A stretch of 64,000 nt of DNA from Sphingobacteriales bacterium JAD_PAG50586_3 (GCA_023213195.1 CP096135.1:946616-1010615), one strand, 5' to 3'; numbered from the stretch's first letter, positions 20,693 to 62,833 are shown. A program made the numbers and translations. The notes: a model not told the origin generated them from the letters alone.

Positions 20693-22137
20693 CTATTTAC
20701 CGCGACCTAACGAGAAAGCGTCTTTGCCATCAAAAGTGCAAAGGTTTTCTGTTTTAATAAAGTCGATACCGGCATCGGCAAGGCGGCCTAAAAGACCTGC
20801 AATTGCTTTGTGGCTGGTAGTAGAATCAGACAAGTAACGAACCACAAAATGGTCGGTGCAGAAAGTTTCTACGTTACCGCCCGGCCACACCTCGGTACCA
20901 CGGTTGGTAATTACTTTAAAGGCCAAACCATCGCCATTTAGCGGGGTTAGTTTCTCTACTAACTCAGGCGCAGTGCCGTTGTGGTGGAAGAACACATCAA
21001 CACCAACAGTTTCTTTTTACCTGCGCTTTTGCGTACCACAGGTTTAAGGTTCATTGGGGCTTTAGCAGTAGCGTAGCTAACGGCTTTAAATTTGGTAGGC
21101 TTTTGGCCAACGCGTGCAATAACAGCATCGGCAAACTCCTTAGTACCTACTTTCTCAGTAGATAAACCTTCTTTGAAGATGTCGTAAGTATGTACACCGT
21201 CTTCTAAGGTTTTTAACCATGCGTTGTGAACGTTCTCAGCAGCTTCAGTCTGGCCAATGTGTACAAGCATTTGTACAGCGCCTAACAACAGACCCGATGG
21301 GTTAGCCATATTTTGGCCAGCGCGGCGTGGGGCCGAACCGTGGATAGCCTCGAACATAGCACAGTTAGGGCCTACGTTAGCCGAACCTGCTAAACCAACA
21401 GAACCGGCAATTTGGGCGGCAATGTCAGAAATAATGTCACCGTAAAGGTTAAGCGTAACAATTACGTCGAACAACTCAGGGGTGTCGCTCATTTTGGCTG
21501 AGCCTATGTCAATAATCCAGTGTTCTTTTTCAATTTCAGGGTACTCAGCACCTATCTCGTCAAACACCTGGTGAAACATACCATCGGTTTGTTTCATGAT
21601 GTTGTCTTTAGAGAAACAGGTTACTTTTTTACGGCCGTATTGTTTAGCATATTCAAACGCGTAACGAACGATTTTTTCGCAGCCCGGGCGAGAGATTAGT
21701 TTTAAGCACTGTACAACCTCATCGGTTTGTTGGTGCTCAATACCGGCGTAGGTATCTTCCTCATTTTCACGGATGATAACCAAATCCATATTAGGGTATT
21801 TGGTATCAACATACGGGGCGTAAGCAATGCATGGGCGAATGTTAGCATACAAGCTAAGCATTTTGCGGGTTGTTACGTTTAAGCTTTTGTAGCCACCGCC
21901 TTGTGGGGTTGTAATAGGGGCTTTTAAGAATACTTTGGTACGGCGTAGGCTGTCCCAGGCTTCGGGGGCAATACCGGCAGCATTACCGCTAAGGTAAACC
22001 TGCTCACCAATTTGTATTTCTTCAATTTCAAGTTGTGCACCGGCTGCTTCCATAATGCGCAGGGTGGCATCCATAATTTCAGGACCAATACCATCGCCTT
22101 TAGCAACGGTAATAGGAGTTTTAGTTGACATATCCAA
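20693..22137 (-). CDS. icd: isocitrate dehydrogenase (isocitrate/isopropylmalate dehydrogenase family), two ORF fragments with a frameshift near 21000 (ttcttttt run)
   Basis: NLYGDIISD hallmark motif, GSAPRRAGQNMANP. The C-terminal 100 aa continue in another frame. Confidence 0.75.
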
Positions 22138-22139
22138 TT

Positions 22140-22945
22140 CTTTTAAAATGCGCGCAAATATAGCGGTTTATTGTTTACTACAGTATTTAGTTTCCTTTTT
22201 AAGTCCCCCTCACTCCTTTAGGAGAGGGGGATTTAGGGGTGAGGGAAAGCCACTAAACCCCGCATCGCTGTAAATAAAAGAGCATGTTTTGGACCCTCGT
22301 TTTTAAACTCCCCTACTTTTTAAGCCTGCCCAGACACGAATGTCGTCAGGGGAGGGGTGGCCTTTAGGCCGGGGTGGTTACATCCCTAAAACCCGCATCG
22401 CTGCAAGATAAAGCGCACGTTTTGAACCCTCGTTTACCTCACCCAGCCGCACCCAATTTCCATTGGCTGCGACACCCTCTCCCGGCGGGCGAGGGTAAAA
22501 ACCGATAAGCCCCTCAAAATATCACCTATCTTAAAGCCACAGGGCTGTAAAATTTTTTTCAAAATGAACTTGACATTTTATATTTCTACAGTTTAAAACG
22601 TCCGATAAATCCTCCATCCCGTTTCTTTCAATTTTTGTCAAGTAGTTTACCCCAATTAAAGCCAAGGGGCTGTAAGAAAAAATTGCAAAATGAACCCGTC
22701 ATCCCGAACTTGTTTCGGGATCTATAAATTCACAGAAGCAACATCGAAAATGTAAAGTATCAGGCATAGTTTAGTTGTGCTTGCTAATGTCGACAATTCA
22801 TCTTCGGGACAATAGATTTTTCGTTTTTCATTGTTAGTTTTTAGTTTCCTACAAAGATACAACCCCAGGTACCCGTTTGTCAAGATTAACTTTTAAGTCC
22901 CCTGCTTTTTAAGGGGTAGCCTTTAGGCGTGGTGGTTACATCATT
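22140..22945. repeat. non-coding repeat island 1: mosaic of short dispersed repeat modules (R1, R2, R3) with GC-rich hairpins
   Basis: No ORF over 60 aa. Modules are shared with island 2 (47170-47975) and with 26690-26732. See findings. Confidence 0.6.
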
Positions 22946-22948
22946 TTT

Positions 22949-23575
22949 TTAGCTATTTGATTTGTAGGTAAATTTCAAATTTGCCCAATCTGTCTCAGCC
23001 TCAACTGAATAACAAATTCCATTAAGATATGCATAAGTAGTTTTATTTCCATTTGGTAAATACATTACATACCTATTGTTGCCAGCGTTTTTTATAGGTA
23101 TCATTCGTTGAAATTTTTCAGAAAAGATAGAGTTCACATTTACAGGTTCATAAAAATAAAGGCATGCAGTTGTTAAGAGTATGGGATTATTGATAAAACC
23201 GTTATGGCCATTTTTATCAAAGCAACTATAAAATCTTCCATTCCAGGTTATGAGATTATTTACTTCTACTTTATTATTTGTTGTTCGATATAATTTTGCC
23301 TCTTGCAAAATATTCTTATTAAATTTCACGCTCATCTTATCATAAAATTTTATATTAAATAACAAGAGGTTCACTCTTGCATTCGATTCAAAAAAATACT
23401 CTGTAACATCATTATTTGTACTTTTTATAATGTGTATTTCACCAATTGCTTCATTACCTTTTGTAATTGTGTAGGTTAGGTTCTTTCTGTTATTTATATA
23501 GCTTGAAGCTTCTGCGAATTGAAAATTCATAATGCAGATTAAAAGCAGGATTATAATGTTTTTTAATTGTCTCAT
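22949..23575 (-). CDS. hypothetical secreted protein (AT-rich)
   Basis: 208 aa with signal peptide. No recognisable motif. Confidence 0.4.
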   Translation of the reverse strand: MRQLKNIIILLLICIMNFQFAEASSYINNRKNLTYTITKGNEAIGEIHIIKSTNNDVTEYFFESNARVNLLLFNIKFYDKMSVKFNKNILQEAKLYRTTNNKVEVNNLITWNGRFYSCFDKNGHNGFINNPILLTTACLYFYEPVNVNSIFSEKFQRMIPIKNAGNNRYVMYLPNGNKTTYAYLNGICYSVEAETDWANLKFTYKSNS

Positions 23576-23618
23576 GATTTCATTGTTTTTATTGGTTTAT
23601 AATGATTTATTTGTGTGT

Positions 23619-24598
23619 TTAAATGTTTTTTACTGTATATTTATCTGTGAAGTATATAATTGCGTCTTTAATTGCATCCTCAACCGGAGTATATTCTAAT
23701 TCCAATTCTGAAATAGATTTTTTGTTTGTATAGAAATTGTCAATACAAAGTATTTTCATATTTGTACTGCTTATGCTTGTTTTAATTTTACAAAACCTTA
23801 AAACGTCGCCTAAATACCCAATTCCTATTAATATTTTTTTTGGGATTTTTAACATTAAAGGGCGTTGATTAGTGATGTTATTTAGTTTTCTAAAAAAATC
23901 AACATAACTAAGATTTTCATTTACAATAAGATAGTTTGCTCCATATTTCTCTTTGGATAAGCTCAAAATGATGCCCTTAGCCACATCTTTAACATGAACA
24001 AAATTTTTCCCGCCTGACGGATAAAATATTATTTTCTTTTTCCAACCCATTAAAATTATTTTACCAGAACTTGGCTTTGTATCAAATGCTCCAAGCATAA
24101 AACCCGGATTTATAATTATTACATTTATCTTGTCTTGGTGCTGTAACAGATTTTTTCAGCTTCCAATTTACTTTGAGCATAAAAGGAAGATTGGAATGGC
24201 GATTTTATTTTACTTTTTTCTGTTCCTAAATCATTTAATGAGCCAAATCCCAATGTGTTTGCTGTGCTTACAAAAACAAATGTTTTTACTTTACAAAGAA
24301 TGGCGGTATTTTGGAATTGTGAGGTAGCATTACAATTGATTTTCCAATAATCCTTATAGTTGATTATGTTCTGACTTGTTTCTGCGGCAATATGAATAAC
24401 AGTATCTACATCTTTTAGAATCAGTGTAAAATCATCAAACAAATCCCCTTCAATTAGTTCTAAATTGGGATGTAATGGCCCTTCAAATTTTGATTTGTTA
24501 CGTATTAATCCTTTTACATAATATCCTTTTTCTAACAAATCAAATGCAAGGTTCGTACCTAGTAGTCCATTAATGCCTGTTACAAATACTTTTTCCAT
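23619..24598 (-). CDS. NAD-dependent epimerase/dehydratase-family protein (extended SDR), two fragments with a frameshift near 24100-24125
   Basis: N-terminal Rossmann VFVTGINGLLGTNLAFDLLEKGYYV. The C-terminal half is in another frame. Confidence 0.55.
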
Positions 24599-24599
24599 A

Positions 24600-25391
24600 T
24601 TAAATTTCTCTTTTGATTGCATTTGTCATTAAAGGCAATCTTATCCAGATGGGTAAAAGTTTTAAAAGTGCATAGCTGAAAGGGTTCACCATAATTACAG
24701 TGTCTTTTCTAAATAGTTGTTGAATACAATATTTAGCCACTTTTGCAGGATCTAGCAATGTTAATTTCCCCAGTAACCCTTGTTTTTCTATCCTAGCTTT
24801 TACCTCATTATTTGTTTTCATTGCTCCCGGGTTTACAACACTTACAGATACAATGGAGTCTTTAAGTTCTTCAGATAACCCTCTGGTAAAGGAATGAATG
24901 AAACTTTTTGAGGCGGGATATACAGTCTTGTAACCAATGGGCGAAAAAGCTGCCATACTTGATACATTCAGAATATATGATTCTGTTTGTTTCATTAGAT
25001 TGGGCAGTAACTTATGGGTAATTATGGAGGTTGCCACCACGTTTACCTGCATAATCGTATTGATATAATTTACATCGGCATCTATAAATTTTTTAGTGCC
25101 ACCTACTCCAGCATTATTGATTAGAATATTAATGTTAAAGTGCTTATTTAGCCAGTCGGTGAGGGCTATTACATTTTGGGTTTGAGCCAAATCCGTTTCG
25201 TAATAATAGGTTTTCACACCATATCTGGTAGCTGTTTCGGCAGCTAAAATGGAAATGCTTTCATTTGGCAGACTTACCAGAATGACATTTATTTTTCTGG
25301 TAGCCAACTCTGTTACAAAAGCCTTACCCAATCCTTGGCTGGCTCCGGTTACTATCGCAAATGTTTCTTTTGTTTGAACTTCTGCTTGCAT
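24600..25391 (-). CDS. SDR-family short-chain dehydrogenase/reductase
   Basis: FAIVTGASQGLGKAF… NAG…, YPASK catalytic motif. Confidence 0.8.
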   Translation of the reverse strand: MQAEVQTKETFAIVTGASQGLGKAFVTELATRKINVILVSLPNESISILAAETATRYGVKTYYYETDLAQTQNVIALTDWLNKHFNINILINNAGVGGTKKFIDADVNYINTIMQVNVVATSIITHKLLPNLMKQTESYILNVSSMAAFSPIGYKTVYPASKSFIHSFTRGLSEELKDSIVSVSVVNPGAMKTNNEVKARIEKQGLLGKLTLLDPAKVAKYCIQQLFRKDTVIMVNPFSYALLKLLPIWIRLPLMTNAIKREI

Positions 25392-25523
25392 AAACTTAAA
25401 TTTTATGAAGCAAAAGTATAATGAGCATAGAGCCTGAATGCTCTGGTTTATAACAGTGAACGCATTGAATTAAGTTTGTAACCTAATGGTAATAAATACT
25501 TTACATAAACCCTATGGGTGAGT

Positions 25524-26630
25524 TTATAAGGTTGAACTGCTTTTCTTGAATTCTGATGGAGTTTGATTGGTCAACTTCTTAAACGTAGTATTAAAAGCTG
25601 TTTTGGAATTAAAGCCCACCTCAAAGGCTATACCCAGTATTGAATATTGATCCATTTTTGAACTAAGCAGCAGTAATTTGGCTTCCTCAATTCTGTACTT
25701 ATTAATAAAATTGAAAAAATTTAAATTGAAGCCGGAGTTAATGATGTAGGATAATTTGTGAGTAGTTGTGCCAAATAATTCCGCAAGTTTTACTAAAGTA
25801 AGCTCAGAATCAAGATAGGGCTTTTGGCTGAGCATAAATTGAGTTAATTGTGCTTTTAGGTTAACTAATTCTTCATCCGATATAATCTTCTTTTTAGCAT
25901 CACTAACTTCAATTTCATCGCTCAAGGATATAATTTCTTCAATGGCTTTTTCTTTAAAAGGGTAGATTTCCTTTTGCCTCAATGAATGAAAAGCAGTATA
26001 ATAAATTATCAGGAGGCTTAAAATATTCATAATCAGGTCTAATCGCTCCAAACTAAAAAGAATATTGTAAAAGATAACTGTTATGACTATCAAAAGAATC
26101 GCAATAATGATCCTTTTAAGCTAGGAGAGATCAATTTCCATTTTTTGAGAAGAATACATCATAACAACCTTTTGGTGCTTTCTTACTTTGTAATAAGAAG
26201 CCAGAGTATAGAAGAGTGTCTGGCTAAGCATCAAAAAAATAAGTATATAGTTAATAGTCAGGGAATTTGACTTGGCAAAGAAATAAAGTAAAATAATGTA
26301 ACCAATGGGGAGAATGAGATGTTGCGGGATTGCCTTTTTAAATTTGAAGCTTGGATTAGAATAAAATACAACGGTAAAATAAAACAGAATTGGTGTAAAG
26401 TATTGCACGCCCCTTAATAACAGTTGCCAATTTTGGTTTAGCTCTACACCGTAAACAAGAAATACTATTTCATCTACCCAGAAAAATGCCCACAGAAGAA
26501 AATATACTCCAAGCAATCGGTTAGCAATTTTGTTTACCTTAAATATATTAACCTGATTCAAAAATGAAAGCAGCATTAGTGAACCAAAGTTTAAAATCAC
26601 AAACAAAGAAGCTAATTTGTCAAATATCAT
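25524..26630 (-). CDS. AraC-family HTH transcriptional regulator with an N-terminal multi-TM sensor domain, interrupted by an in-frame TAG (26121-26123)
   Basis: C-terminal AraC HTH (…LAELFGTTTHKLSYIINSGFNLNFFNFINKYRIEEAKLLL…GFNSKTAFNTTFKKLTNQTPSEF). The upstream 169-aa TM ORF is in the same frame through the TAG. Confidence 0.5.
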
Positions 26631-26832
26631 ATTTTATTACTTTGTGTTGCCGAACTTAATTTTTTCATTACGTATCATCGGGGTGAGGCCCTACAAAGAT
26701 ATAACCCACTACCCCTTTGTCAAGAATAAGTTCCGCTCTTTATTTAAATTAAACCCTTTACCCCCTTATCTGTTTGTGGTATTGCGCTCTGGCAATTGCA
26801 CGTTGCAAATGCCTACCTTTGCACCCTATATA

Positions 26833-27569: not shown

Positions 27570-28288
27570 TTGAAACGAATAATAGCCATACTAGTAAGTC
27601 TGTTACTTGTGTTGGGGCCGCTAAGCGCCCAGCGACGCGAGATTATAAAGAACTTGCCTAAATACGACAGGCAGGTTATTCACTTTGGCTTTATTTTGGG
27701 TATGAATACCATGAACTTTGTGGTAAAGCAAAACCCCAACATCAAATCGTACGACTCTGTATACGTGGTTGAAACCCAAGGCGAAACAGGTTTTTCGCTG
27801 GGCATCGTGTCTAACCTGCACATTGGCAATAACTTAGACTTACGTTTTCTTCCCGGCCTGTCATTCGGTACACGCAATATAGAATACACCCTGCGTACGC
27901 ATTTTAACGGTACTGCCACACAAACCCCGTTTGTAAAAAAGGTAGAGTCTACCATCCTGGAGTTTCCATTGTTAATGAAGTTTAAATCTAACCGCTATGG
28001 CAACATGCGGGCCTATATTATTGGCGGCGGCAGGTACTCTTTAGACCTTGCATCGCAAGCCAAGGTGGTTGATGAGGGCAAGCAAACCATTAAGTTATAC
28101 CGTAGCGATTATATGTGGGAACTGGGCTTTGGGTTCGATTTTTACCTGAGTACTTTAAGCTATCGCCCGAAATTAAGGTGGCCTATGGCTTTAGAGATTT
28201 GCTAAAACGAGAAGACCACCTCTTTAGCCAAAGTGTAGATGCCTTACGCTCTAAGACAATCTATTTCTCTTTAACGTTTGAATAGCCT
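27570..28288 (+). CDS. outer-membrane beta-barrel (porin-like) protein, with a frameshift near 28160-28200; true C-terminus …IYFSLTFE*
   Basis: Signal peptide followed by alternating beta-strand pattern. The 3' end is read in another frame through 28288. Confidence 0.5.
28221..28288 (+). repeat. direct repeat copy A (~68 bp, ~94% identical to 29313-29380)
   Basis: ctttagccaaagtgtagatgcctt[a/g]cgctctaagac[a/c]atctat[t/c]tctctttaacgtttgaata. Coincides with the 3' end of the OMP gene. Confidence 0.7.
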
Positions 28289-28316: not shown

Positions 28317-29228
28317 CTATTCTACCACCAATTTTTGGCTATAAATAATACCCTTATGGTTAATACAAACCGTGTAAAGTCCGCTAGGGTATTGACTAAA
28401 TAATAATCCATCTGGTTGAACCTGCTTAGTTTCTACCAGCCTGCCTTGCATATCATAAATATGGATGATAACCACATCGTTAAATGGGGGTTTTACCATA
28501 AAAGAGCCCAACGTGGGATTAGGGTAAATTAATACCGGACTTTTATTGGTTTCTTTAATTATTGTAAGAAAAGGATTACATGGGCGCTCATCAGGGGCAT
28601 TCCAAAACCCAATTTGTGCACAATCGCTATAACAGATTAGCTTGCGCGGTATAGCTATATTTTCAGGTAAGTAATATTGAGGAAACAAGAATGTTTCAGC
28701 ACCTAATTTGTCATACACCTTAATAACATCCATGTTATCAGGGGTTAATCCAAAACCGTAAGCAGAAGGGTATTTATTTCGTATAAATAAAACCCTAAGC
28801 GTATCATTATTAATAACCTCATACCCTGTAGAATCCACATAAACCGTAATGGTGTCTACAAAAGGCAAAGATGTATAATACGTTGGTGTTACCCATGTGT
28901 CGCCGGGTGCAGCATTAAAATTATATAAAATTGAATATGTGCCTTGGGGCGACCTCCAAAATATGGTATCACCTCCCATACTTTCATACAAGTAAATAAT
29001 TTTGCTTCCATCTACTATTTTAGTTACCGTTCTATTTATAACAGAATCATAAACAACATTAGTAGGGTAGCAAGTAATTGTTTTATCAAAAATCATGGTG
29101 TCTTCTTCAAATACACTTTTACATTTATACGTCCAGCTGCTTGGGGCGGGGGCAAAATGTTGTGCAGTAGCATTTGCCCATATTAGTAATAATAAGCCAA
29201 AAGCTATTTGTTTTAAGTATGCTATCAT
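28317..29228 (-). CDS. T9SS C-terminal sorting-domain (Por_Secre_tail) protein of unknown function
   Basis: Signal peptide. C-terminus IYPNPTLGSFMV…IHIYDMQGRLV…GLYTVCI…KLVVE is a canonical T9SS CTD. Confidence 0.7.
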   Translation of the reverse strand: MIAYLKQIAFGLLLLIWANATAQHFAPAPSSWTYKCKSVFEEDTMIFDKTITCYPTNVVYDSVINRTVTKIVDGSKIIYLYESMGGDTIFWRSPQGTYSILYNFNAAPGDTWVTPTYYTSLPFVDTITVYVDSTGYEVINNDTLRVLFIRNKYPSAYGFGLTPDNMDVIKVYDKLGAETFLFPQYYLPENIAIPRKLICYSDCAQIGFWNAPDERPCNPFLTIIKETNKSPVLIYPNPTLGSFMVKPPFNDVVIIHIYDMQGRLVETKQVQPDGLLFSQYPSGLYTVCINHKGIIYSQKLVVE

Positions 29229-29312
29229 GTTATCAGCATTAATGTTGTGTAAAGCTACGTTGTTGATATAGCTACTGCAAAAACATTAAATCGTATTTAT
29301 CGGATAATGTAC

Positions 29313-29380
29313 TTTAGCCAAAGTGTAGATGCCTTGCGCTCTAAGACCATCTATCTCTCTTTAACGTTTGAATAAAAAAG
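29313..29380 (+). repeat. direct repeat copy B, followed by an intrinsic terminator (29383-29412)
   Basis: Duplicated 3' end fragment of the 27570 OMP gene (encodes …YFSQSVDALRSKTIYLSLTFE*), followed by aagcccctgtttccaggggctttt. Confidence 0.7.
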
Positions 29381-29425
29381 CCCCTGTTTCCAGGGGCTTT
29401 TGCGTAGTATCTTACTAAAAGGGTA

Positions 29426-47169: not shown

Positions 47170-47975
47170 ATCTGTTGCCAAATGTAGTTATTTTAACTTT
47201 TAAAGGTCTCCCTTTCCAAAGGGAGTGGCTGGCGCCTTGGCGCCAGACGAGGGATTTAATGTCGTTGTCAAAATCCCCGGCTCTTCGAGCCACCCCTTTA
47301 AAAGGGCGACCTAAACCCTTGCGGCTGTAAGATAAAGCACACGTTTTGAGCTCTCCTTCCGTACCCCCTCCTAACCTCGCGTTGCTCGGTTTCTCCTCCC
47401 CCTACTAATAGGGGAGGTGTCCGCCAGGACTGTGGGGGTAAGAAAACCCGCATGGCTGTCCCAAAGGGATGCCTTCGGCACAAGATAAAGCGTACGTTTT
47501 GAGCCCCAACTATATACCCTCTTGAGAGGGGTGGCAAAGCAACGCTTTGACGGGGTGTGTATTGTAACGTTCCAATCCCTACAGGCGGTAGTAAAATATA
47601 TCATTTCTGCTCATCGTTTTTTTTAACTCCCCTACTTTTTAAGGAGGGGTAATTCTGACTGGTAAGTCAGAATGGGGTGGTTACCTTAAACCCCTACAGG
47701 CGGTAGTAGAAAAATGTGTTTCTGCGCACCATTTATAGGTGCAAATACATGGGTTGACTTAAAGTAAAACTTTAACTCAAAAAATTTTAAAGATCTCCCT
47801 TTCAAAAGGGAGTGGATTCCGATGATAATCGGAAGACGAGGGATTTCGGCAGGCATTAGTTATAGTTTTTACAAAGATACAACCCCGAATACCCCTTTGT
47901 CAAATTAAAATATACACACTACATTAGAACACAGAAACACCTGCCTTTTATAGTATGTAACATGATACTGCAAAC
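47170..47975. repeat. non-coding repeat island 2: mosaic of modules R1 to R6
   Basis: No ORF over 80 aa. Shares R1, R2 and R3 with island 1 and R5 with 35326-35395. Internal duplicated R4 and R6 modules. Confidence 0.6.
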
Positions 47976-49076
47976 ATGAACAGAAAGACAATAATGATTA
48001 AAGTACTATTCTTTTTAAGCGTACTGGCTATTTTAACATCGTGTAACGGGCAAAATAAAAATATATCATCTAATACAGAAACCTTAAATGATTCAATTGC
48101 TGTAGGAAATACTGTAAATAAACTCGGTAACCATTTGTGGTATGTTTTTCAAGACAAAAAGAATAACTATTGGTTTGGAAGTAATGGTGAAGGTGTGTAT
48201 CGTTATGACGGAAAAACGATAGTCAATTTTACGACAAAAGATGGACTTGCAAACGACACTATAAGACAAATTCAAGAGGACAAATTTGGGAATATATTTG
48301 TTTCAACTTTCGGCGGTATCAGCAAGTTTGACGGAAAGACATTTGCTACTCTGCAACCAATCAAAAGCAAAGAATGGAAATTAGAACCTAATGATTTGTG
48401 GTTTTATATATTGGGTAAAAAGAATGAGGGTGCTTATCGCTACGATGGCGAAAACCTATACAATTTAGAATTTCCTCAACACTATCTTCACGATGAAATT
48501 TATCCACGAGTTGTCAATTCGTTTTTTAGTCCTTACGAAGTGTATTCTATTTATAAAGACAGAAAAGGGGCAATGTGGTTTGGCACTTCAGTTTTTGGAG
48601 CTTGCCGTTTTGACGGAGAAACAGTAAAATGGATGTACGAAGACGATTTGACCTATGTACCTAATGGGGGCACTTTTGGCATTCGTTCCATTTTTGAAGA
48701 TAAAGAAGGCAGCTATTGGTTTTGCAATACGCGGCACCGGTTTGTTTTTGACTTTGACAAAACAACAAAAAGCGACAGGCTTCAATATCAAAAAATTGAT
48801 GGAATTGGAAACGCAAAAATCTTTGGTGGAGATGAATACATTTACTATTCATACATTTTAGAAGATAATAAAGGGAATATTTGGTTAACCACCTGGGACA
48901 AAGGAGTGTATAAATATGATGGATCTGCTATTACAAATTATTCAGTTAAAGATGGTTTAAAAGACGTTAATTTAGTTTCAATGTACAAAGATAACCAAGG
49001 CAACCTATGGCTTGGAACACCAGAAAACGGAGCATTTAAGCTTAATGGTAATACATTTGAAAGATTTAAACCATAA
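47976..49076 (+). CDS. lipoprotein composed of two-component-regulator propeller (Reg_prop-type) repeats
   Basis: Lipobox LTSC. Repeated units of the form GNIWLTTWDKGVYKYDG, YWFGSNGEGVYRYDG, MWFGTSVFGACRFDG, LWLGTPENGAFKLNG. Confidence 0.55.
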   Translation: MNRKTIMIKVLFFLSVLAILTSCNGQNKNISSNTETLNDSIAVGNTVNKLGNHLWYVFQDKKNNYWFGSNGEGVYRYDGKTIVNFTTKDGLANDTIRQIQEDKFGNIFVSTFGGISKFDGKTFATLQPIKSKEWKLEPNDLWFYILGKKNEGAYRYDGENLYNLEFPQHYLHDEIYPRVVNSFFSPYEVYSIYKDRKGAMWFGTSVFGACRFDGETVKWMYEDDLTYVPNGGTFGIRSIFEDKEGSYWFCNTRHRFVFDFDKTTKSDRLQYQKIDGIGNAKIFGGDEYIYYSYILEDNKGNIWLTTWDKGVYKYDGSAITNYSVKDGLKDVNLVSMYKDNQGNLWLGTPENGAFKLNGNTFERFKP

Positions 49077-49230
49077 CAAAAAAGTAAAGGCAACCACTAA
49101 GTTAAAAGGGAGTTTTAACCCTTTGCCGTGGTTGGTGTTTAGCACAGCGTCACCAACCACTAAATTATACTAAGTTTTCTTTCAAATCCATTTCCTTTTC
49201 GTTAGCTTTCGGTTTCTTAAATCGCTCACA

Positions 49231-53559: not shown

Positions 53560-53830
53560 GGGTTGGTAATAAAGAAACTAATAATACTTGTAATAATAAC
53601 TTGCATTGGGTTGCCGCTAACAGCCCAGCGCTTTAGGGGCTTGCGCAGTAAAGGGGTTGGGCTGGGTGTAGGTATGTGCAATATCCTTTCCCCGGGCAAA
53701 CAACAACCGGCGAGCAACGTGGCGACCCACGTTATAACGATGTGTACATGACCATGATGTTTAATGTCAACATTATGATATTAGACGACAGGGGCCGCCG
53801 CCCTAAATTTTTTACCTGGGCCAGCCGTTT
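53560..53830 (+). pseudogene. remnant DUF6089 gene with an internal deletion (signal-peptide region fused to the last ~45 codons)
   Basis: …LPLTAQRFRGL… (matches the N-terminus of 53927 gene) and EQRGDPRYNDVYMTMMFNVNIMILDDRGRRPKFFTWASRF* (matches the C-terminus …EQRGDPRDKDVYMMLLFNVNYKLTDSRGRLPKFFSWASRF*). Confidence 0.5.
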
Positions 53831-53926
53831 TTAAGTTTATGCTTGATGCAGTAATGATTTAGCGAAAATTTAATGGTAAAATTTGGCTAAAGTTGTTATA
53901 TTTGTTCTCTAATTAGGCATAGAGTA

Positions 53927-54842
53927 TGAAAAAACTACTTCTTATAGCGGCAGTATTGTTAGGGCTTATGCCTTTGCAAGCGCAGCGTTTCAGGGGCTTA
54001 TGCAGCTAGAGGCAAGGTTGGGCGTAGGTACGTCTAACACCCTGTCTGAGCTGGGTGGGGCCAACCGCATTGGTACGCACTTTTACCGCGATTATGAAAT
54101 TGTTATGACCCGCCCTGCGGTTCATTTTGGTGTACGTTACTATATTCCTGAGTCGCGTTGGGCAGGCACCTTCAACATTGTTTATGCACGCGTTGCCGGT
54201 AGGGATAACCTTACCAAAGACCCATATCGCGAAAACCGCAACCTTAACTTCCGCTCTTATATTTTAGAGTTTTCAGTTCAGGGCGAGTATTATTTCCGCA
54301 AAAAACAAACCGGTGCACGTTATTCTATCCGCGAGGTAGTGGGTGCTAAACAGGTTAATATGGACTGGTACCTTTTTGGCGGTATTGGCGGGTTCTTTTT
54401 TAACCCAAAAGGCCAATATAATGGAAACTGGTATGCTTTGCAACCATTAAATACCGAAGGGCAGACATTGTTACCTACCCGTAAAAAATACAGCCGCTTT
54501 ACCGGTTGCATACCTTTGGGCCTTGGTGGCAAATACGGTATTAATAACCAAATAAGTGTTGGTTTTGAAGCCGGTTTCCGTTACACGTTTACTGATTATC
54601 TTGACGATGTTAGCACAACATACGTTGACCCTGCCGTATTAATTGGCGGCAACAGTCAGCTTTCTGCCACCCTTGCCGACCCTAGTCTGGGAACTGTTCC
54701 TAACCAAACAGGCATTGGAGAGCAGCGTGGCGACCCACGTGATAAAGACGTTTACATGATGCTTTTGTTTAACGTTAACTACAAACTAACAGATTCACGC
54801 GGCCGCCTTCCGAAATTTTTCTCGTGGGCAAGTCGCTTTTAA
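53927..54842 (+). CDS. DUF6089-family outer-membrane beta-barrel protein (frameshift near 53995)
   Basis: MKKLLLIAAVLLGLMPLQAQRFRG|MQLEARLGVGTSNTLSELGG… Paralogous to the next gene. …FTDYLDDVSTTY… shared motif. Confidence 0.6.
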
Positions 54843-54880
54843 TCCTAACTATTTTCAACTTTTTTGCGTTTAGGTTATTA

Positions 54881-55702
54881 ATGAGAAAGATAGCGTGCTC
54901 AATTATTCTTGCTTTATTGGTTGTATCTGTTCAGGCACAACGTTCGCAAGTGGGCCTTGTTGGTGGGGTTACCTACTACTTAGGAGATTTAAATCCCAAC
55001 AAACAGTTTTATAAAATAAAACCGGCAGGGGGTATATTCTACCGTTATAACATGAACCCGCGCATGGCCGTTAGGGGTAATATTATTTACGGCGGCATAG
55101 AGGCTAATGATGCCGACTCTAAAGACACCTTTGCTATAAACCGCAACCTTGCCTTTAAATCTATGTTGCTTGAGTTTTCGGGCTATTTCGAATTTAACTT
55201 TTTTAATTACATACTTGGCGACCCTCAATACCCTTTTACCCCTTACGTATTTGCAGGCGCGTCTATTTTCCGCTTTAACCCTAAGGCCGAATTAAATGGC
55301 GAAGAGTTTGCCTTACAGCCTTTGGGTACCGAAGGCCAGGGAACAACTGCCTACCCCGACAGGAAAAAATACTCGCTTACCAACCCATCGGTATTGTTTG
55401 GGGTGGGCTTAAAGTGGAACGTTTTCAGGGGCTTTGGTATGGGCTTGGAATGGGGCATGCGCCGCACCTTTACTGATTATCTGGATGATGTAAGTAAAAC
55501 CTATGCCGATGTGGCCGCCCTTTCAGCAGAAAACGGCCCCGATGCAGCAGCCCTTTCAGACCGCTCTGCCGACCCGGGTACTAATACAGACCGCCAGCGT
55601 GGCAATACCAAAACAAAAGATTGGTTCTCCTTTGCAGGTTTGTCAATAACATTCAATATAAAAGGCAAGCAATCGCAGTGCCCTGCATACCCTAATCATT
55701 AA
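54881..55702 (+). CDS. DUF6089-family outer-membrane beta-barrel protein (paralog)
   Basis: MRKIACSIILALLVVSVQAQRSQVGLVGGVTYYLGDLNP…FTDYLDDVSKTY…. Confidence 0.6.
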   Translation: MRKIACSIILALLVVSVQAQRSQVGLVGGVTYYLGDLNPNKQFYKIKPAGGIFYRYNMNPRMAVRGNIIYGGIEANDADSKDTFAINRNLAFKSMLLEFSGYFEFNFFNYILGDPQYPFTPYVFAGASIFRFNPKAELNGEEFALQPLGTEGQGTTAYPDRKKYSLTNPSVLFGVGLKWNVFRGFGMGLEWGMRRTFTDYLDDVSKTYADVAALSAENGPDAAALSDRSADPGTNTDRQRGNTKTKDWFSFAGLSITFNIKGKQSQCPAYPNH

Positions 55703-55716
55703 TACATTATTATAAG

Positions 55717-56481
55717 GTGGCAGAAGAAATCCTGAAAAGTAAAATTGTAAAAGATAAAGTACCTGCCCACGTAGCAGTAATAATGGATGGCAATGGCCGG
55801 TGGGCCAAACAGCGCGGCATGATGCGTGTGCTGGGTCATAAAAATGCAATTAAAGCCGTTAGGGATACTGTAGAAGCCGCTGCCGAACTGGGTGTTAAGC
55901 ACCTTACCATGTATGCTTTTTCTACTGAGAATTGGAACAGGCCTAAAATGGAGGTTGACGCTCTTATGGACCTTTTGGTATCTACCATACAAGGCGAAGT
56001 AAAAACCCTTAACCAGAATAAGATTAAGCTAAACGCCATTGGCGATATAGACAGCCTGCCCGTTAAAACCCGCAAAGAACTGTTAAAGGCTATAGACGAT
56101 ACCGCCGGTAATAACCACATGACGTTGCACCTGGCCCTTAGCTATAGCGGCCGCAGCGAGATTATGCGGGCTATTAAAAATATGATGTTTGATCTGGAAA
56201 GCAATAAAATTGAAAGGTCGGCGTTGAATGATGACTTGTTTGCACAGTACCTTTATACTGCCGGTATTCCCGACCCTGAGTTGCTTATACGCACCAGCGG
56301 AGAACACCGCATAAGTAACTTTTTACTGTGGCAAATGGCGTATACCGAGTTTTATTTTACTGAAAAACTATGGCCCGACTTTAGAAAGGCCGACTTTTTT
56401 GATGCTGTGCTAGACTACCAATCGCGCGAAAGGCGCTTTGGTAAAACCAGCGAGCAGGTGGACAAGAAAACCAAACCCTGA
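55717..56481 (+). CDS. uppS: isoprenyl transferase (undecaprenyl diphosphate synthase)
   Basis: HVAVIMDGNGRWA…YAFSTENW…ELLIRTSGE…RISNFLLWQ…. Confidence 0.9.
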   Translation: MAEEILKSKIVKDKVPAHVAVIMDGNGRWAKQRGMMRVLGHKNAIKAVRDTVEAAAELGVKHLTMYAFSTENWNRPKMEVDALMDLLVSTIQGEVKTLNQNKIKLNAIGDIDSLPVKTRKELLKAIDDTAGNNHMTLHLALSYSGRSEIMRAIKNMMFDLESNKIERSALNDDLFAQYLYTAGIPDPELLIRTSGEHRISNFLLWQMAYTEFYFTEKLWPDFRKADFFDAVLDYQSRERRFGKTSEQVDKKTKP

Positions 56482-56486
56482 TAAAT

Positions 56487-58944
56487 ATGCAGAGAACCAG
56501 ACAAACATGGTTGTTGCCTCTGCTAATTATTGTATTACACGCTTTACAGGCCGATGCCCAAACGCCTGTTGATTCTTTAAAACCCAATTACATTAACCCC
56601 ACCCAATATGAGGTTGGCGGCATTGATTTTGTTGGCCTTAAACGGCACAAGAAAGATGTGTTGCTGTCTATTATTGGCCTGCGCGTTGGCGACAAGGTAG
56701 AGGTGCCTAGCGAAAAGCTGGCCGACATTATTGACTACCTATGGAAACAAAACCTGTTTAGCGATATTAAACTCAACGTAGACAGCATTGTTGAGGGTAA
56801 GATTTACCTAGCTTTTCAGGTAGAGGAAATTGCCTACCAGGCCGGGCCGGTTAAGCTAAATGGCATTAGCAGGGCCGAAGCAAACAAGCTATCAACCAAA
56901 CTCAAACCCTATGCAACAGGCACTATTAGCCAACAGCATATTCTTTCCATAACCACCCTTATTACCAATTATTATAAAGATAAGGGGTATTACAACGTGT
57001 TTGTAAGTACCCGCCAACTGCCCGCAAAGGTTGATACCAATATGGTACAGCTTGTTGCTGATATTACAACAGGCCCAAGGGTAAAAATCAATAGTATAGA
57101 TATTGTGGGCAACAGGGCAGTGGCCGATACTAAGCTGCGCCGGGTGATGAAAGACACCAAAGAGCGGCGTTGGTTCAACATCTTTAAAACATCAAAATAC
57201 AATGCCGAAGCCTATACTAAAGATAAGCAGCGCATAATAGATTACTACAACCAACTGGGCCACCGCGATGCTGAGGTGGTTAAAGACAGTGTTTACCTGT
57301 TCAGCCCCAAGCGGTTAAACATCAGCATTACTATAGATGAGCATAAGGTATATTACTATGGCAATATAACATGGGTGGGCAACACCAAATACAGTACCGA
57401 TACCCTGAATCGTGTGCTGGGTATAAAGCCTGGCGAGGTGTACGACAAAAGCAAGCTGAACGAAGCCTTGTATATGAATGCTGCGGGAAACGATATTACA
57501 TCGCTATACATGGATAATGGCTACTTGTTTTTTAATGTAACACCAGTAGAGACAGGCCTTAATGGCGATAGTATTAACCTGGAGATGCACATTTACGAAG
57601 GGAAACCTGCCACCATTGGCGGCATAAGCATAAAAGGCAACACCCGCACGCAAGACCATGTAATTCTGCGTGAGGTATATACCAAGCCCGGCCAGTTATT
57701 TAAGCGCAGCGATATTATACTAAGCCAACAGGCATTAATACGGCTTGGCTATTTTAACCCCGAAGCCTTGCAGGTAAACCCCATACCCAATCCTGCAAAT
57801 GGCACTGTTGACATTGAATATGTGGTAGAAGAAAAACCCACCGACCAGATACAGCTATCGGGGGGCATTGCGGCGGGTAAAATTGTGGGTACACTGTCGT
57901 TGGTGATGAATAATTTTTCGTTTAAAAGCATAGGCAAAAAAGACCGATGGCAGCCGCTCCTTCTGGCGATGGGCAGCGAGTAGCATTAAGCGCGCAAAGC
58001 AACGGGGCCTCATTTCAATCGTACAGCCTTAGTGTAACAGAACCGTGGTTGGGTGGTAAAAAACCGAACTCGCTTACGGGCAATGTGTTGTACAACGCGC
58101 AACGGTACGATAGTAACCGAAAGTTTAGCGCCTTGGGTTTCACGGTAGGCTTGGGCAACCGCTGGAAAAAGCCCGATAACTTCTTCAGCTCGTTCTACAC
58201 CATCAACTTTTATAAATACAAGGCCGATAGCTTTCCCGGAATTGATTTTAATGGCGACAGGTACGATGTTAATGTGGGTGTAAGCGTATCGCGCAGTTCG
58301 TTAGATGGTAAGGATTATCCAATGGAAGGCTCATCGTTTACCCTGGGGTGCAGGCAACGCCTCCGTGGTCGGGCAGCAGGTCTTTTACCGCGCAAAACCC
58401 ACCCAAAATGGTAGAGTACCACAAATGGAATTTTGATGCCCTTTGGTACCAAAAAATAGTAGGCAAACTGGTATTTAAAGCATCAGCAGCCGTGGGGTAT
58501 TTGGGCTACTACAACAAAAAACTGGGCCTTGCGCCGGTAAACCGCTTTTATATGGGCGGGGTGCAACTGGCTGCAACCAGCTTTGTAGGGCAGGAGTACA
58601 TTAATATGCGGGGGTACGAGAATGGAAGCCTGTCGCCCACGGGAGGCAGTGCGCTATACAACCGTTTTGTGCTGGAACTGCGCCACCCTATTTTGCTAAA
58701 ACCCGAAGCCGGGGTTAGCATTTATGGCCTTGCCTTTGCCGAGGCGGGCAATGTGTGGAGTGGAGTAAAAGACTATAACCCATCGGTACTAAAACGTTCT
58801 GTCGGGGCGGGCGTTAGGGTGGTGGTGCCTATGTTTGGGCTTATTGGGGTAGATGCGGGCTATGGTTTCGACACAAAATCAATACCCGGATATAGTGGAA
58901 ACCCGTGGCAATTCCACTTTGTTATAGGGCGTGATATCAAATAA
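56487..58944 (+). CDS. bamA: outer membrane protein assembly factor BamA, copy 1 (three fragments, two single-G/T homopolymer frameshifts near 57950 and 58345)
   Basis: Signal peptide, POTRA repeats, C-terminal Omp85 barrel ending …NPWQFHFVIGRDIK. Confidence 0.8.
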
Positions 58945-59019
58945 AGCGTATTTTTGCAATATTTTTAAAAATTCTGCGTTTACCTAAACCGTAAAAGCAA
59001 CTGGAACACAAGCCATAGA

Positions 59020-61538
59020 GTGAAGAAATTATATACAGCGCCAAAGTATTTTAAACAAATAGTTTTAGGCCTTTTCCTTTTATTAACCGTAGGCGCAAAC
59101 GCCCAAATTACCATTGGTGGCGACTCTATTATTGTAGACTATGCCAGCCCTACAGAATATGAAATTGCGGCCATCACGGTAGATGGTGTTCAGTTTTACG
59201 ATAAAGGCATTATCGTAATGCTATCGGGCCTTAGCCATTGGCGATAAGATTGATATACCCGGTGATAAGCTTTCTACAGCCATTGAAAACCTTTGGAAAC
59301 AGGGCCTTTTCGGCAATATTGAAATTATAGCTGATAAAATAGAGGGCAAAAAAATATTCCTGCGCTTAAAACTGGAAGAAAGGCCGCGCCTATCAAGCTT
59401 CGCGTTTAAAGGCATACCCCGTTCTGAAGCCGATAAGCTGCGCGATAAGATTAAGCTGATACGTGACAAGGTGGTTAACGATGAGCTTATTATTTCTACC
59501 CAAAACCTGGTTAAAGAATATTACAGGGATAAAGGCTATTACGATGCCGAGGTTAACATTACCCAAACCCCCGATACCTCTAATGCCAACAAGGTTGTGC
59601 TTTTCATCAACGTAAAGCAAAACAACAAAATCAAGATTAATAAAATCAATATTATTGGCAACAGCATGGTGGCCGATGCCAAAATACGCCGCCAGTTAAA
59701 AGACACCAAAGAGAAAAAGTGGTACAGCCTGTTTTCTACCTCTAAGTTTATAGAGGAGAATTATAAAAAGGATAAGCAGAAGATAATTGACCTGTATAAC
59801 GAGCAGGGCTTTAGGGATGCTACCATTGTTAAAGACACCGTTTACCGTTACGATAATAAAACGCTGAACATTGATATTGTGGTAGAAGAAGGCCGTAAGT
59901 ACTACTTCCGCAACATTACATGGGTGGGCAATACCAAATACTCTTCAGACACACTTAACCGTGTATTGAACATTAAAAGGGGCGATGTTTATAACCAGGC
60001 TACCTTAGAGGGGGCCTTGTTCACCAGCCAAAACGGTACCGATGTATCATCGTTGTACATGGATATGGGTTACCTTTTCTTTAACGTTACCCCTGTAGAG
60101 GTTGCCGTAGTGGGCGACTCTATAGACTTTGAAATGCGCATGTACGAAGGCCGCCCTGCCACCATTAATAAGATTACCATTGTTGGCAACACCAAAACCA
60201 ACGACCATGTTATCCTGCGCGAGGTGCTAACCAAGCCGGGCCAGCTTTTCCGCAGGTCTGATATTATTTCAACACAGCGTTTCCTTGCACAGTTAGGCTA
60301 TTTTAACCCCGAGGCTTTGCAGGTAAACCCTAAGCCCGACCCTATAAACGGTACGGTTGATATTGAGTATGTGGTTGAAGAAAAACCATCAGACCAGATA
60401 GAACTTTCAGGTGGTTGGGGTGCAGGCCGTTTGGTAGGCACACTGGGTGTTACCTTCAACAACTTCTCGGCCCGCAATATGTTTAAAAAAGGCATGTGGC
60501 GCCCATTGCCTGCCGGCGATGGTCAGCGTTTATCAATCCGCGGCCAAACAAACGGTATCTTCTTCCAATCATACAACCTGTCGTTTACAGAGCGCTTGGT
60601 TAGGTGGGCGCAAGCCAAACTCATTAACGGTTTCTGTGTTCCATACAGCCCAGTCTAACGGCTACCCAAAATCTGATGTTAACCGTGTAGCCCTGCGTGT
60701 TACCGGAGCTACCATTGGCCTTGGTACACGTTGGAAACGCCCCGACAATTACTTCAACGCTTTTTACAGTGTTAACTTTCAGTACTACGATAACCAAAAG
60801 TATATATCAAGCATTTCAACAAAGTCGTACAGCGCCACGCTGGGCTTCTCGGTATCGCGTAACTCTATAGACCAGCCTATTTACCCACGCGAGGGGTCTA
60901 ACATATCACTATCTGTAAACGCCACACCACCATGGCCGTTGCGTGTTAACGATGGTAAGCTTGGCTTTAGGACATTTGGCGATGATAACGATGCCCGCTT
61001 TAAGTTTGTAGAATACCACAAGTGGAAACTGGATTTAACATGGTACCACGCCCTTGCAGGCAAATTGGTACTTAGCGCCCGTGCCCACTTAGGCTACTTG
61101 GGTTACTATAATAAAGATATTGGCACATCGTTGTTCGAGCGTTTCCAGGTAGGTGGCTCGGGCTTATCTAACTTTAACCTGGTAGGTACAGAAATTGTGG
61201 CCCTGCGTGGTTACCCTGATGGTAGCTTATCGCCTGCCAATAACCAGGGCAGCGCCATGTTCAACAGGTATATTTTAGAGTTGCGCTACCCTGTATCGCT
61301 AAACCCACAGGCTACAGTATTTGGCCTTGCATTTTTAGAGGGCGGCAACACGTGGGATAAAATACGCGACTTTAACCCCTTCAACATTAAACGCTCTGCC
61401 GGTGTTGGTGTAAGGGTGTTTTTACCCATGTTTGGTATGCTTGGTTTAGATTATGGCTATGGCTTTGATAAGATAGACCGCCTTGGCAGCACCCAGCAGC
61501 GTGGCAACATACACTTTATTATAGGCCAGCAGTTTTAA
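59020..61538 (+). CDS. BamA paralog, copy 2 (three fragments, frameshifts near 59240 and 60590)
   Basis: Same architecture. Long identical blocks with copy 1 (e.g. NITWVGNTKYS.DTLNRVL, GYLFFNVTPVE, GNTKTNDHVILREV.TKPGQLF.RSDII, GYFNPEALQVNP.P.P.NGTVDIEYVVEEKP.DQI.LSGG). Confidence 0.75.
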
Positions 61539-61660
61539 TGCACAATTCATAATGCATAATTATTTGCGCTGAACAAACATTTTGCACTTTGCATTATTCA
61601 TTTTGAATTAATTTGCACGGTAATTGAGTAGTTATAGAATAGATTTAAAATTTAACACCA

Positions 61661-62245
61661 ATGAAAAGGATAATAGCCATTGTTTTTGCCCTGTTTTTAG
61701 CTTTAGGCTTAAACGCGCAAAAGTTTGCTTATGTAGACAGCCAATACATATTAGACAATATTCCCGATTATAAATCGGCACAGGCGCAGTTAGATAAATA
61801 CTCGCTGCAATGGCAAAAAGAAATACAGGCTAAGTTTGATGAGCTTGATAAGCTGTACAAAGACTTTCAGGCCGATGCTATTTTGCTTACCGAAGAGATG
61901 CGTAAAAAACGTGAAGACGAAATCTTAGATAAAGAAAAGCAAGCCAAAGAATTGCAAAAAAACCGCTTTGGTAAAGATGGCGACTTGTTTAAAAAACGCC
62001 AAGAGCTTGTAAAACCTATACAAGACAAGGTATACAATGCGCTAAAAGATTTTGCAACCACTAAAAACTACGCGGTAATCTTTGATAAATCAAGCGACTT
62101 AACAATTTTATACGCTAACCCTAAGTATGACATTAGCGATGAGATATTAGACGAAATGGGCTTTAAAAACACCAGCAGCGATGATAGTGGCTCTGGCAGC
62201 GGCGGCGGTACAGGCGGTGGCACTACCGGTGGCGATAAAAAATAA
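61661..62245 (+). CDS. OmpH/Skp-family periplasmic chaperone
   Basis: Signal peptide, coiled-coil OmpH profile. Gly/Ser-rich tail. Confidence 0.75.
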   Translation: MKRIIAIVFALFLALGLNAQKFAYVDSQYILDNIPDYKSAQAQLDKYSLQWQKEIQAKFDELDKLYKDFQADAILLTEEMRKKREDEILDKEKQAKELQKNRFGKDGDLFKKRQELVKPIQDKVYNALKDFATTKNYAVIFDKSSDLTILYANPKYDISDEILDEMGFKNTSSDDSGSGSGGGTGGGTTGGDKK

Positions 62246-62264: not shown

Positions 62265-62780
62265 ATGAAAAAGTTAGCAATAATAGCACTCCTTGCCCTA
62301 TCGGCACTCAACGTAAACGCACAGGTAAAAGCTAAGTACGGTTGGATTAACTCATCAGAGTTATTAGATATTATGCCTGAAAGGAAAAAGGCAGCAGTTT
62401 CTATAGACTCTATGGTTAAAGCCGAAGAAAGCATCATCAAAATATTGAATGATGATTACGAGTCGAAGCTTAAAAAGCTAAATACCGAGGCTGCCAAAAT
62501 GACCCCCGACCAACTGGCCCGTGCAAAAGACGAGTTAGCTAAAATTGAGGATGCTATTTACATGCAAACCCAAGGCGCACGAGATAAAGTACAAAAAAGG
62601 AGCAGGAACTGCTTAACCCTTTGTTAGATAAGGTATCTACCGCTATTAAAGATGTAGCTAAAGAAAACGGCTATACCTATGTGTTTGATATTAGCTTAGG
62701 CTAAGGCACTTGTTTACCCCGATGGCGACAACATGATTAAGCTGGTTAAGAAAAAACTGGGCTTGCCGGTAATGGACTAA
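62265..62780 (+). CDS. OmpH/Skp-family chaperone, second copy (frameshifts near 62600 and 62700)
   Basis: MKKLAIIALLALSALNVNAQVKAKYGWINSSELL… The C-terminus …YTYVFDISLG|ALVYPDGDNMIKLVKKKLGLPVMD* is split across frames. Confidence 0.65.
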
Positions 62781-62833
62781 CAAGCCTTTGTATGTAACAG
62801 ATCCTGAAACTAGTTCAGGATGACGTGAACAGG

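Follow-up and report, generated by a model that had tools for sequence, protein, structure and literature searches.

Two repeat islands beside icd and hipA

The stretch of CP096135.1 analysed here (64,000 nucleotides, hereafter the window) comes from the circular genome of an uncultivated freshwater Bacteroidota of the order AKYH767, recovered from a Lake Zurich amoeba culture (PMC9583780). In the window, a non-coding region packed with short repeated modules, island 1 (22138-22948), separates the start codon of icd (ATG at 22131, minus strand) from the stop codon of a DUF6134 gene (22949). Its twin, island 2 (47188-47975), lies upstream of a HipA_2-like gene; the two share ordered modules, every one of them in the same orientation. 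The building blocks are double-hairpin units (H, HB, H3 and H6), a lineage-specific linker (L), a cosmopolitan hairpin of the CGTC-2 class of repetitive extragenic palindromes (REPs), and, at the gene-distal end, a promoter-like module, R3. The modules are named here by their anatomy, L being the R1 of an initial annotation of this DNA and H, HB, H3 and H6 its R2 and nested palindromes. Repeat searches bore out the proposal that the modules recur, both in the twin island and in an orthologous island of a metagenomic relative, and it is the comparison with such relatives that associates the islands with gene gain.

Contigs L006 and L007 represent two metagenomic relatives in which the icd protein is 97% identical to that of the window; since icd DNA is ~88% identical, their source organisms are sister species. 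In L006 the spacer is empty of repeats (ubiE<-148 nt->icd, back to back). The same ubiE-icd spacer of L007 holds a 680-nt island, with R3 at its ubiE end, hairpin units and three copies of L, and that of the window holds island 1 together with a 3.7-kb islet of six genes (27-35% GC), bracketed by the R3 copies R3a and R3b. The six-gene islet is at the icd locus of neither relative, so that L007 has the island without the islet. The three species form a series of one mosaic repeat island: empty, island only, and island with apparently acquired genes. At the hipA locus, eleven contigs (L016-L026; HipA 87-88% identical) place a Por_Secre_tail gene 122 nt from hipA; in the window, 2.0 kb, made up of a mini-island (49089-49163), an AT-rich Reg_prop gene and island 2, stands in place of ~51 nt. 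The short spacers of the relatives, set against an island plus AT-rich genes in the window, imply that both islands are expansions of divergent-promoter spacers. The islands coincide at these two loci with acquired-looking AT-rich genes, and the comparison demonstrates their association with what appears to be gene gain. The view of the initial annotation that the repeats mark a junction with acquired DNA is upheld at both spots, where the relatives have spacers of 148 nt (L006) and 122 nt (L016-L026).

The H3-L2-H2-L1 core of island 1 is orthologous to that of L007, at 88% identity, compared with 72% at icd third codon positions. Differences cluster where modules meet, with hairpins and L core almost unchanged; the icd-adjacent unit is a different hairpin in the two species and the R3-proximal half cannot be aligned. 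As far as the aligned sequences reveal, the islands turn over module by module between species. The icd 5' untranslated region and promoter, which has its TAnnTTTG box 31 nt upstream of the ATG, form the conserved boundary of island 1 and are not part of the repeats.

Several further contigs touch the same two spots. The first bases of L014, from a 90% relative, fall within a hairpin unit that shares this plan and lies immediately upstream of the hipA promoter; a contig start of this sort looks like an assembly break at a repeat. More generally, L014 (1-85) and L011-L013 (1-99, compared with L010 2311-2420) begin in hairpins 85-99 nt upstream of hipA or icd. In a species with 85% identical icd, strains differ directly upstream of the icd promoter, with a restriction-modification gene in one and hairpin-bearing DNA in others; variation seems to arise repeatedly in the icd upstream spacer. 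The flanks of a close Reg_prop homologue from another organism (L027) contain no modules. On the practical side, such islands break short-read assemblies and yield spurious small open reading frames (ORFs).

The initial annotation had found no ORFs in island 1, and in substance this stands: those present are of 42-72 amino acids and lack Pfam support, ORFs overlapping the two islands (42-79 amino acids) gave no Pfam match at E < 0.05, and island 1 differs from its L007 orthologue by indels whose lengths are not divisible by three. We ruled out small conserved peptides in L and H, as start codons are not kept in L007. The assembly, made with Flye, is based on R9.4.1 Nanopore reads and had no short-read polishing (PMC9583780); errors in homopolymers are thus to be expected, and homopolymer lengths within modules may be 1 nt off. 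Thus icd is broken into ORFs of 392 and 100 amino acids (20693-22131) by a 1-nt deletion in an A-run at ~21018, the homologues of L006 and L007 having 479 amino acids; this is a Nanopore homopolymer error and not a pseudogene. In exact look-ups neither the icd nor the hipA-like protein of the window had a match, which in the case of icd is due to this frameshift. Other genes are similarly split in appearance (POTRA/BamA-like, 56487-58944 and 59471-61538; OmpH, 62265-62780; an epimerase fragment, 24125-24622). The modules are not an assembly artefact, because the Illumina-based JGI short-read contig L007 has them too.

A widespread CGTC-tagged hairpin

The CGTC-tagged REP superfamily is characterised by an unpaired CGTC, stems of 8-9 bp that open with A-T pairs, loops of 4-5 nt and CCA tails; it occurs in five phyla, including Bacteroidetes (Gramella forsetii), has no known dedicated transposase, and includes Neisseria dRS3 as CGTC-1 (PMC3733652). 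Island 1 contains such an element on the plus strand at 22697 (REP1, CGTCATCCCGAACTTGTTTCGGGATC), and it recurs on the minus strand at 62825 (REP2) with a compensatory C-G to T-A change. Both fit the CGTC-2 class: the 5' CGTC is unpaired, A-T pairs stand at positions 1 and 2 of an 8-bp stem, and the loop has 5 nt (ATCCCGAA/CTTGT/TTCGGGAT in REP1, ATCCTGAA/CTAGT/TTCAGGAT in REP2). Moreover, REP1 translates as RHPELVSGS, one residue from the RHSELVSGS of an intragenic CGTC-2 REP of Sulfurovum (PMC3733652, supplement file 4).

An unpaired CGTC tag directly 5' of a stem is found at 22697(+), 62825(-), 47838(-), 47552(-) and 47249(-). Five CGTC hairpins with stems of at least 6 bp were observed against 0.73 in shuffles, four of them in the islands and one after an interrupted OmpH-like frame; a sixth, with a 5-bp stem, lies in island 2 and brings the count to six in 64 kb, all outside the ORFs listed (at least 110 amino acids for 62825). 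In island 2 the tagged hairpins occupy only the minus strand, where three CGTC-hairpin-nCCAC units were observed and 0.1 were expected; they fit the published stem only partly (5-7-bp stems, 2-4-nt loops). Their nCCAC tails are replaced by CTA or CTG in REP1 and REP2, and both CCA and CTN occur among 28 related hairpins. Hairpins tagged with GTAG were not found in the window.

A scan of IMG/VR with CGTCATCCYGAACTNGTTTCRGGAT returned the exact 25-mer in 26 contigs of 38-71% GC, so that organisms across that range share one CGTC hairpin without a single base changed. When 28 CGTC hairpins were aligned, three of the eight stem pairs changed on both sides, 98.9% of cells were paired, and none of 500 shuffles reached the observed covariation score. 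Some neighbours of the IMG/VR hairpins are hairpins with a C-arm and a G-arm, in the style of H. Contigs L031, L035, L047, L049 and L037 carry CGTC hairpins that include head-to-head doublets ~90 nt apart, which are REPIN-like; L037 has 16 tagged hairpins within 13 kb, 15 of them on one strand, and Pfam searches of the ORFs around them were uninformative.

Linkers and double-hairpin units

L is a 47-nt linker without internal structure, present at 22253, 22386, 47310 and 47443, so that two copies in each island are confirmed for R1 (L1 to L4, Table 1). L1 and L2 are 84% identical over 50 nt, and the copies overall 62-84%. An nhmmer profile gave E-values of 1e-11 to 4e-13 for six copies and 2e-6 for the interrupted one; its best other match, in the rest of the window and ~80 kb of relatives' DNA, had E = 0.15. 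Degenerate variants begin at 22533, 22658, 47574 and 47689, and the first two are the internal pair described in the initial annotation, which is real and aligns as a variant of L. L-type and hairpin units alternate, with an L-to-L spacing of 133, 147 and 125 nt in island 1 and 133, 131 and 115 nt in island 2.

Searches further afield found L, R3 and H2/H7 nowhere beyond the window and L007 in the DNA searched: the L core gave five matches in genome contigs, all at chance level; a degenerate L pattern gave one chance match in metagenome contigs, within a coding region; BLAST of island 1 against plasmids and phages matched nothing; and scans of viral collections returned no match for L, R3 or H and one each for HB and H3. 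As to what L might be, we rejected a promoter, given that its boxes TAtcTTGC and TATTTACA miss the -7 consensus and lack a correctly spaced -33 element, and a site like that of integration host factor, WATCAANNNNTTR being unmatched. A CRISPR array was rejected as well, since identity among the L copies is only 62-84% and the would-be spacers (H) occur in both islands (no search aimed at cas genes was made).

Units H, HB, H3 and H6 fold as two neighbouring stem-loops, and most of them have a DNA z-score between -3 and -4. In these units a semi-conserved hairpin with a C-arm and a G-arm stands beside a second, near-perfect palindrome, which on the minus strand often has a tag, CGTC or TGTC, and an nCCAC tail. 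Read in the minus orientation, H units follow (GTAA)CCACCCC - [near-perfect palindrome of 12-22 nt] - yACC - CCTCC-TTAAAAAG-nnGGGGAG - TTAAAAA, and the first palindrome is wholly different between copies (GGCCTAAAGGCC, ATTCTGACTTACCAGTCAGAAT, TGGCGCCAAGGCGCCA, TTCCGATTATCATCGGAA), a variation that looks like wholesale replacement rather than stepwise covariation. The loop of H2 contains a further 27-nt mini-hairpin (22324-22350), nested there as an insertion and missing from the copies in L007 and island 2. The R2 copies of the initial annotation correspond to H2, H4 and H7, and its nested GC palindromes fold as claimed. TTAA or TAAA flanks the H units, which is only suggestive as a target-site signature. 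A role as terminators was rejected: the real terminators of the window are A-tract/stem/T-tract hairpins, and the scan detected none in the islands in the relevant direction.

Outside the lineage, positions 41-90 of the high-GC contig L055 read CCCTCACCC-[hairpin]-ACCCTCTCCCGCCGGGAGAGGGTAAA, a three-part plan that matches H3 (22433-22503), and contig L054 (100-140) has an HB-like unit, TCTCCCTTTTCAAAGGGAGTGGCCTTTAGACCGAGGGATT. The composite hairpin plans of H3 and HB may be far more widespread than the lineage of the window.

A promoter-like module and the case for RNA

In Bacteroidota the sigma-A consensus is a -33 TTTG followed by a -7 TAnnTTTG. R3, with the minus-strand reading TTGACAAAsGGG-N5-7-GGGTTrTAwCTTTGTA, fits it with both boxes at the usual spacing and is the top sigma-70-type match in each island (TTG-N21-TAtcTTTG). 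TAnnTTTG occurs within 120 nt upstream of 18 of the 53 ORFs of the window, where 0.076 sites per 120 nt are expected. There are four copies in all, including that of L007, with a conserved spacer, and R3 is situated at the gene-distal end of all three islands. R3b (22884-22849) and R3c (47903-47870) are aimed into the arrays, toward icd and hipA, and R3a (26724-26691) lies 71 nt ahead of the islet operon's first gene. The initial annotation had located all three window copies, the third (as 47880-47918) some 10 nt off; it had counted them among its REP/MITE-like modules, and here a correction is due: R3 is not a palindromic repeat but a predicted promoter-like module with a complete Bacteroidota promoter match. 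As such it may drive the acquired genes, with which this repeated promoter module is associated. R3 resembles the outward promoters of mobile elements in being repeated and in preceding an acquired islet operon, but it lies in no recognisable insertion sequence and two of the three window copies aim into non-coding arrays.

A full promoter match directed into the array, at the distal end of islands 1, 2 and L007 alike, also suggests that the islands might be transcription units. R3 would then fire toward icd and hipA, giving either a multi-hairpin leader of ~700 nt or small RNAs that regulate, insulate or stabilise the downstream gene, or products processed in the manner of a repeat array; R3c with HB2, for example, would specify a two-hairpin RNA of ~90 nt ending in AUCUUUAAAAUUUUUU. 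Consistent with this, module cores are better conserved than synonymous sites, local structure is strong (island 2 has z = -6.6 and -7.7 against shuffles for the two strands), and one G-T wobble in H3 favours the minus, that is the transcribed, strand. However, the folding energy of the islands is roughly equal on both strands and favours neither, the variable hairpins are swapped wholesale with no stepwise covariation, and no canonical terminator was found in the minus direction. At the gathering threshold of Rfam only two tRNAs pass in the window, and at a permissive threshold the islands match only unrelated eukaryotic families (E = 0.24-7). Moreover, icd and hipA each retain a conserved -7 box of their own beside the ATG, L006 and L016-L026 are without any island, and the literature describes CGTC hairpins as DNA elements (PMC3733652, PMC11893778). 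We regard a transcription-unit function, the main rival of the DNA-level reading given below, as rather unlikely. The suggestion of the initial annotation that the islands form a family of small structured RNAs is, with no Rfam match and both strands folding about equally, neither shown nor excluded.

Comparison with known repeat systems

The organisation of the islands resembles that of enterobacterial bacterial interspersed mosaic elements (BIMEs) and, more closely, that of the Neisseria mosaic elements that contain dRS3 or its longer form, NTS (CGTCATTCCCGCG..CGCGGGAATC). The small GIY-YIG nuclease SsnA cleaves NTS in its single-stranded DNA form, and similar motif-nuclease pairs are widespread (PMC11893778, 2025). 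REP1 shares with dRS3/NTS the CGTCAT-stem-loop-stem-ATC frame, and the islands share the mosaic arrays with other repeats and the clustering beside variable or acquired genes in a repeat-gene-repeat order; in contrast, the published SRM pattern is unmatched, no ssn gene was found in the window, and L, H and R3 have no Neisseria counterpart. With BIMEs and the REPIN-RAYT systems the islands have in common extragenic mosaics of palindromic units and conserved non-palindromic linkers, which vary between strains and are presumed to be mobilised in trans by an enzyme that acts on single-strand hairpins. BIME REPs, however, alternate in orientation and have GTAG tags, whereas the composite units of the window are all direct, no GTAG hairpin was found, and the genome is not known to have a RAYT. 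Compared with the CGTC-2 REPs (PMC3733652), the tag, stem and loop of REP1 and REP2, the extragenic position and the near-identical translated peptide are alike, as are the CGTC and nCCA tail of three island-2 hairpins; unlike them, REP1 and REP2 have a CTA/CTG instead of a CCA tail, the island-2 stems are of 5-7 bp and unrelated sequence, and the window hairpins sit in larger composite units with a lineage-specific linker.

What BIMEs and the Neisseria intergenic mosaic elements (NIMEs) would lead one to expect is found in part. The islands are ordered H-L arrays that exist in empty, rearranged and expanded states across three sister species. Neither the alternating orientation of BIMEs nor the bracketing by dRS3 inverted repeats of NIMEs was observed: matches between island copies are all on the same strand, and minus-strand matches are limited to REP1-REP2 and two 13-nt matches at chance level (E 0.63).

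The initial annotation had called the modules REP/MITE-like. The REP part is well founded, in that they are extragenic hairpin units, with a CGTC-tagged REP among them, that are present, absent or rearranged between sister species. The comparison with miniature inverted-repeat transposable elements (MITEs) fared differently. No inverted-repeat pair joins the module ends, and at the junctions, compared with the empty sites, ~51 nt are replaced with no clear duplication; lacking terminal inverted repeats and clear target-site duplications, the modules do not support the MITE label. The sole target-duplication-like signature near any unit is the TTAGTGGTTG pair around mini-island 3 (minus orientation), in which the repeat overlaps a hairpin arm.

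Interpretation

We think it probable that islands 1 and 2 are BIME/NIME-like mosaics of non-autonomous, REP-type hairpin repeats that operate at the DNA level at a gene-gain hotspot; they are a good example of a known element type and not a new kind of system. The hairpins would extrude in single-stranded DNA and there serve as substrate for a trans-acting, single-strand-specific enzyme encoded elsewhere in the genome, possibly a Ssn-type GIY-YIG nuclease or a Y1/HUH transposase. Clusters would grow as hairpin units insert beside and inside one another and as copies recombine. They would occupy permissive spacers between divergent core genes and form recombination-prone sites at which accessory AT-rich genes come and go, with R3 providing a promoter to those acquired.

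A number of observations weigh against this interpretation. L and H are confined to the window and L007 and are missing from ~200 kb of relatives' DNA; the module copy counts cover the 64-kb window and the relatives' contigs and not the rest of CP096135.1. Crude searches (a regular expression, and phmmer with three query sequences, in the case of GIY-YIG) detected neither a GIY-YIG nor a Y1 gene, whether in the window or near the hairpins of 28 viral loci. The SRM pattern, HGTCWYN(0-2)YYVSBRHN(0-5)WNVSBRGN(0-2)RNCYNB, has no exact match in the window; REP1 would require two substitutions, a tolerance at which shuffles give more matches than the real sequence. With the pattern unmatched and no GIY-YIG ORF in the window, we treat the Ssn link as a lead and not as membership. 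The modules are all direct, unlike the REPs of BIMEs, and the conservation above synonymous sites and the promoter heading each array suit a function at the RNA level equally well.

A bolder possibility is that the R3-headed L-H arrays are a distinct Bacteroidota device, either giving rise to processed hairpin RNAs or acting with an Ssn-like nuclease as a gate for foreign genes entering divergent-promoter spacers; L and the exchangeable palindromes would then be functional and not selfish debris. We hold this to be improbable.

We give still less credence to the modules being recombination sites of a cassette system, similar to integron attC or served by another site-specific recombinase, in which the AT-rich genes would be the cassettes, R3 the cassette promoter and the R3 repeats attL and attR. 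The direct repeats R3a and R3b do bracket the AT-rich islet, hairpin modules stand on both sides of the Reg_prop gene, all modules have a single orientation, and a separate gene insertion with a 63-nt target duplication lies nearby. Against it, however, Pfam detected no integrase or recombinase among 29 window ORFs scanned, including the six islet genes and the genes flanking both islands; the repeating units span 115-147 nt and have no ORF; the L007 island is without a cassette; the Reg_prop homologue of L027 lacks such flanks; and R''/R' core sites are not evident by eye (no formal test was made). Finally, chance resemblance, low complexity or a Nanopore artefact, which an unpolished R9.4.1 assembly with homopolymer errors such as the icd deletion might invite, has practically no chance of being right, being already refuted by the orthologous modules of the independent Illumina contig L007, by L profile E-values down to 4e-13 and by exact CGTC hairpins in 26 unrelated contigs.

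To our knowledge, REP-type repeats, much studied in Proteobacteria, have hardly been described in Bacteroidota. Read as a BIME/NIME-like mosaic, the locus is suited to asking whether hairpins of this kind are handled by Ssn- or HUH-type enzymes outside Proteobacteria, and whether their clusters are markers of gene-gain hotspots.

Other features of the window

Table 1. Positions of the repeat modules and adjoining features in the window
Feature	Position	Strand	Remarks
icd 5' untranslated region and icd own promoter	22138-22195	-	-7 box TATATTTG at 22162-22155; kept in L006 and L007
H1, nested GC-rich hairpin unit	22196-22252	+	3' end GGGGTGAGGG; other hairpin unit at the same position in L007
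L1, 47-nt linker	22253-22299	+	
H2, double-hairpin unit	22300-22385	+	
L2, linker	22386-22432	+	
H3	22433-22503	+	CCTCACCC, 9-bp hairpin (TGTC-tagged, minus strand) and palindrome ACCCTCTCCCGGCGGGCGAGGGT; orthologous in L007; plan shared with L055
Lx1, degenerate L variant	22533-22569	+	
Lx2, degenerate L variant	22658-22695	+	
REP1, CGTC-2-type hairpin	22697-22722	+	CGTC-ATCCCGAA-CTTGT-TTCGGGAT-C
R3b, portable promoter-like module	22849-22884	-	TTGACAAAcGGG..GGGGTTGTATCTTTGTAG; directed into the island toward icd
H4, double-hairpin unit	22890-22939	+	edge of island 1 on the islet side
AT-rich islet, six genes	22949-26630	-	27-35% GC; DUF6134, two unknowns, epimerase fragment, SDR, AraC
R3a, promoter-like module	26691-26724	-	direct repeat of R3b; 71 nt upstream of first islet gene
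Island 2	47188-47975	+	left to right HB1, L3, H5, L4, H6, L'1, H7, L'2, HB2, R3c
HB1	47197-47257		island 2
L3	47310-47356		island 2
H5	47357-47442		island 2
L4	47443-47507		island 2; interrupted by 22-nt double mini-hairpin insert at 47459-47480
H6	47511-47560		island 2
L'1	47574-47616		island 2
H7	47617-47684		island 2
L'2	47689-47731		island 2
HB2	47784-47846		island 2
R3c	47870-47903	-	island 2
CGTC-hairpin-nCCAC units	starts 47838, 47552, 47249	-	island 2
AT-rich Reg_prop gene	47976-49076	+	34% GC; not between hipA and Por_Secre_tail gene in L016-L026
Mini-island 3, two hairpins	49089-49163	-	between 10-nt direct repeats TTAGTGGTTG; far edge of 2-kb inserted block
REP2, second CGTC hairpin copy	62800-62825	-	~20 nt after '...atggactaa' stop (by eye), downstream of interrupted OmpH-like frame

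Two further regions of the window show duplication of other kinds. A 63-nt direct repeat, 95% identical (28222-28284 and 29312-29374), surrounds a Por_Secre_tail gene (28317-29228, minus strand). It resembles the 3' end of the upstream outer-membrane-protein beta-barrel gene (...SLTFE*), and the second copy is followed by a terminator at 29376-29401; the Por_Secre_tail gene looks like an insertion that duplicated the 3' end of its target. Tandem paralogous outer-membrane genes occupy 53697-55503 and 56409-61975, among them DUF6089 beta-barrel paralogues and two POTRA-domain genes that are 71-79% identical over stretches of DNA.

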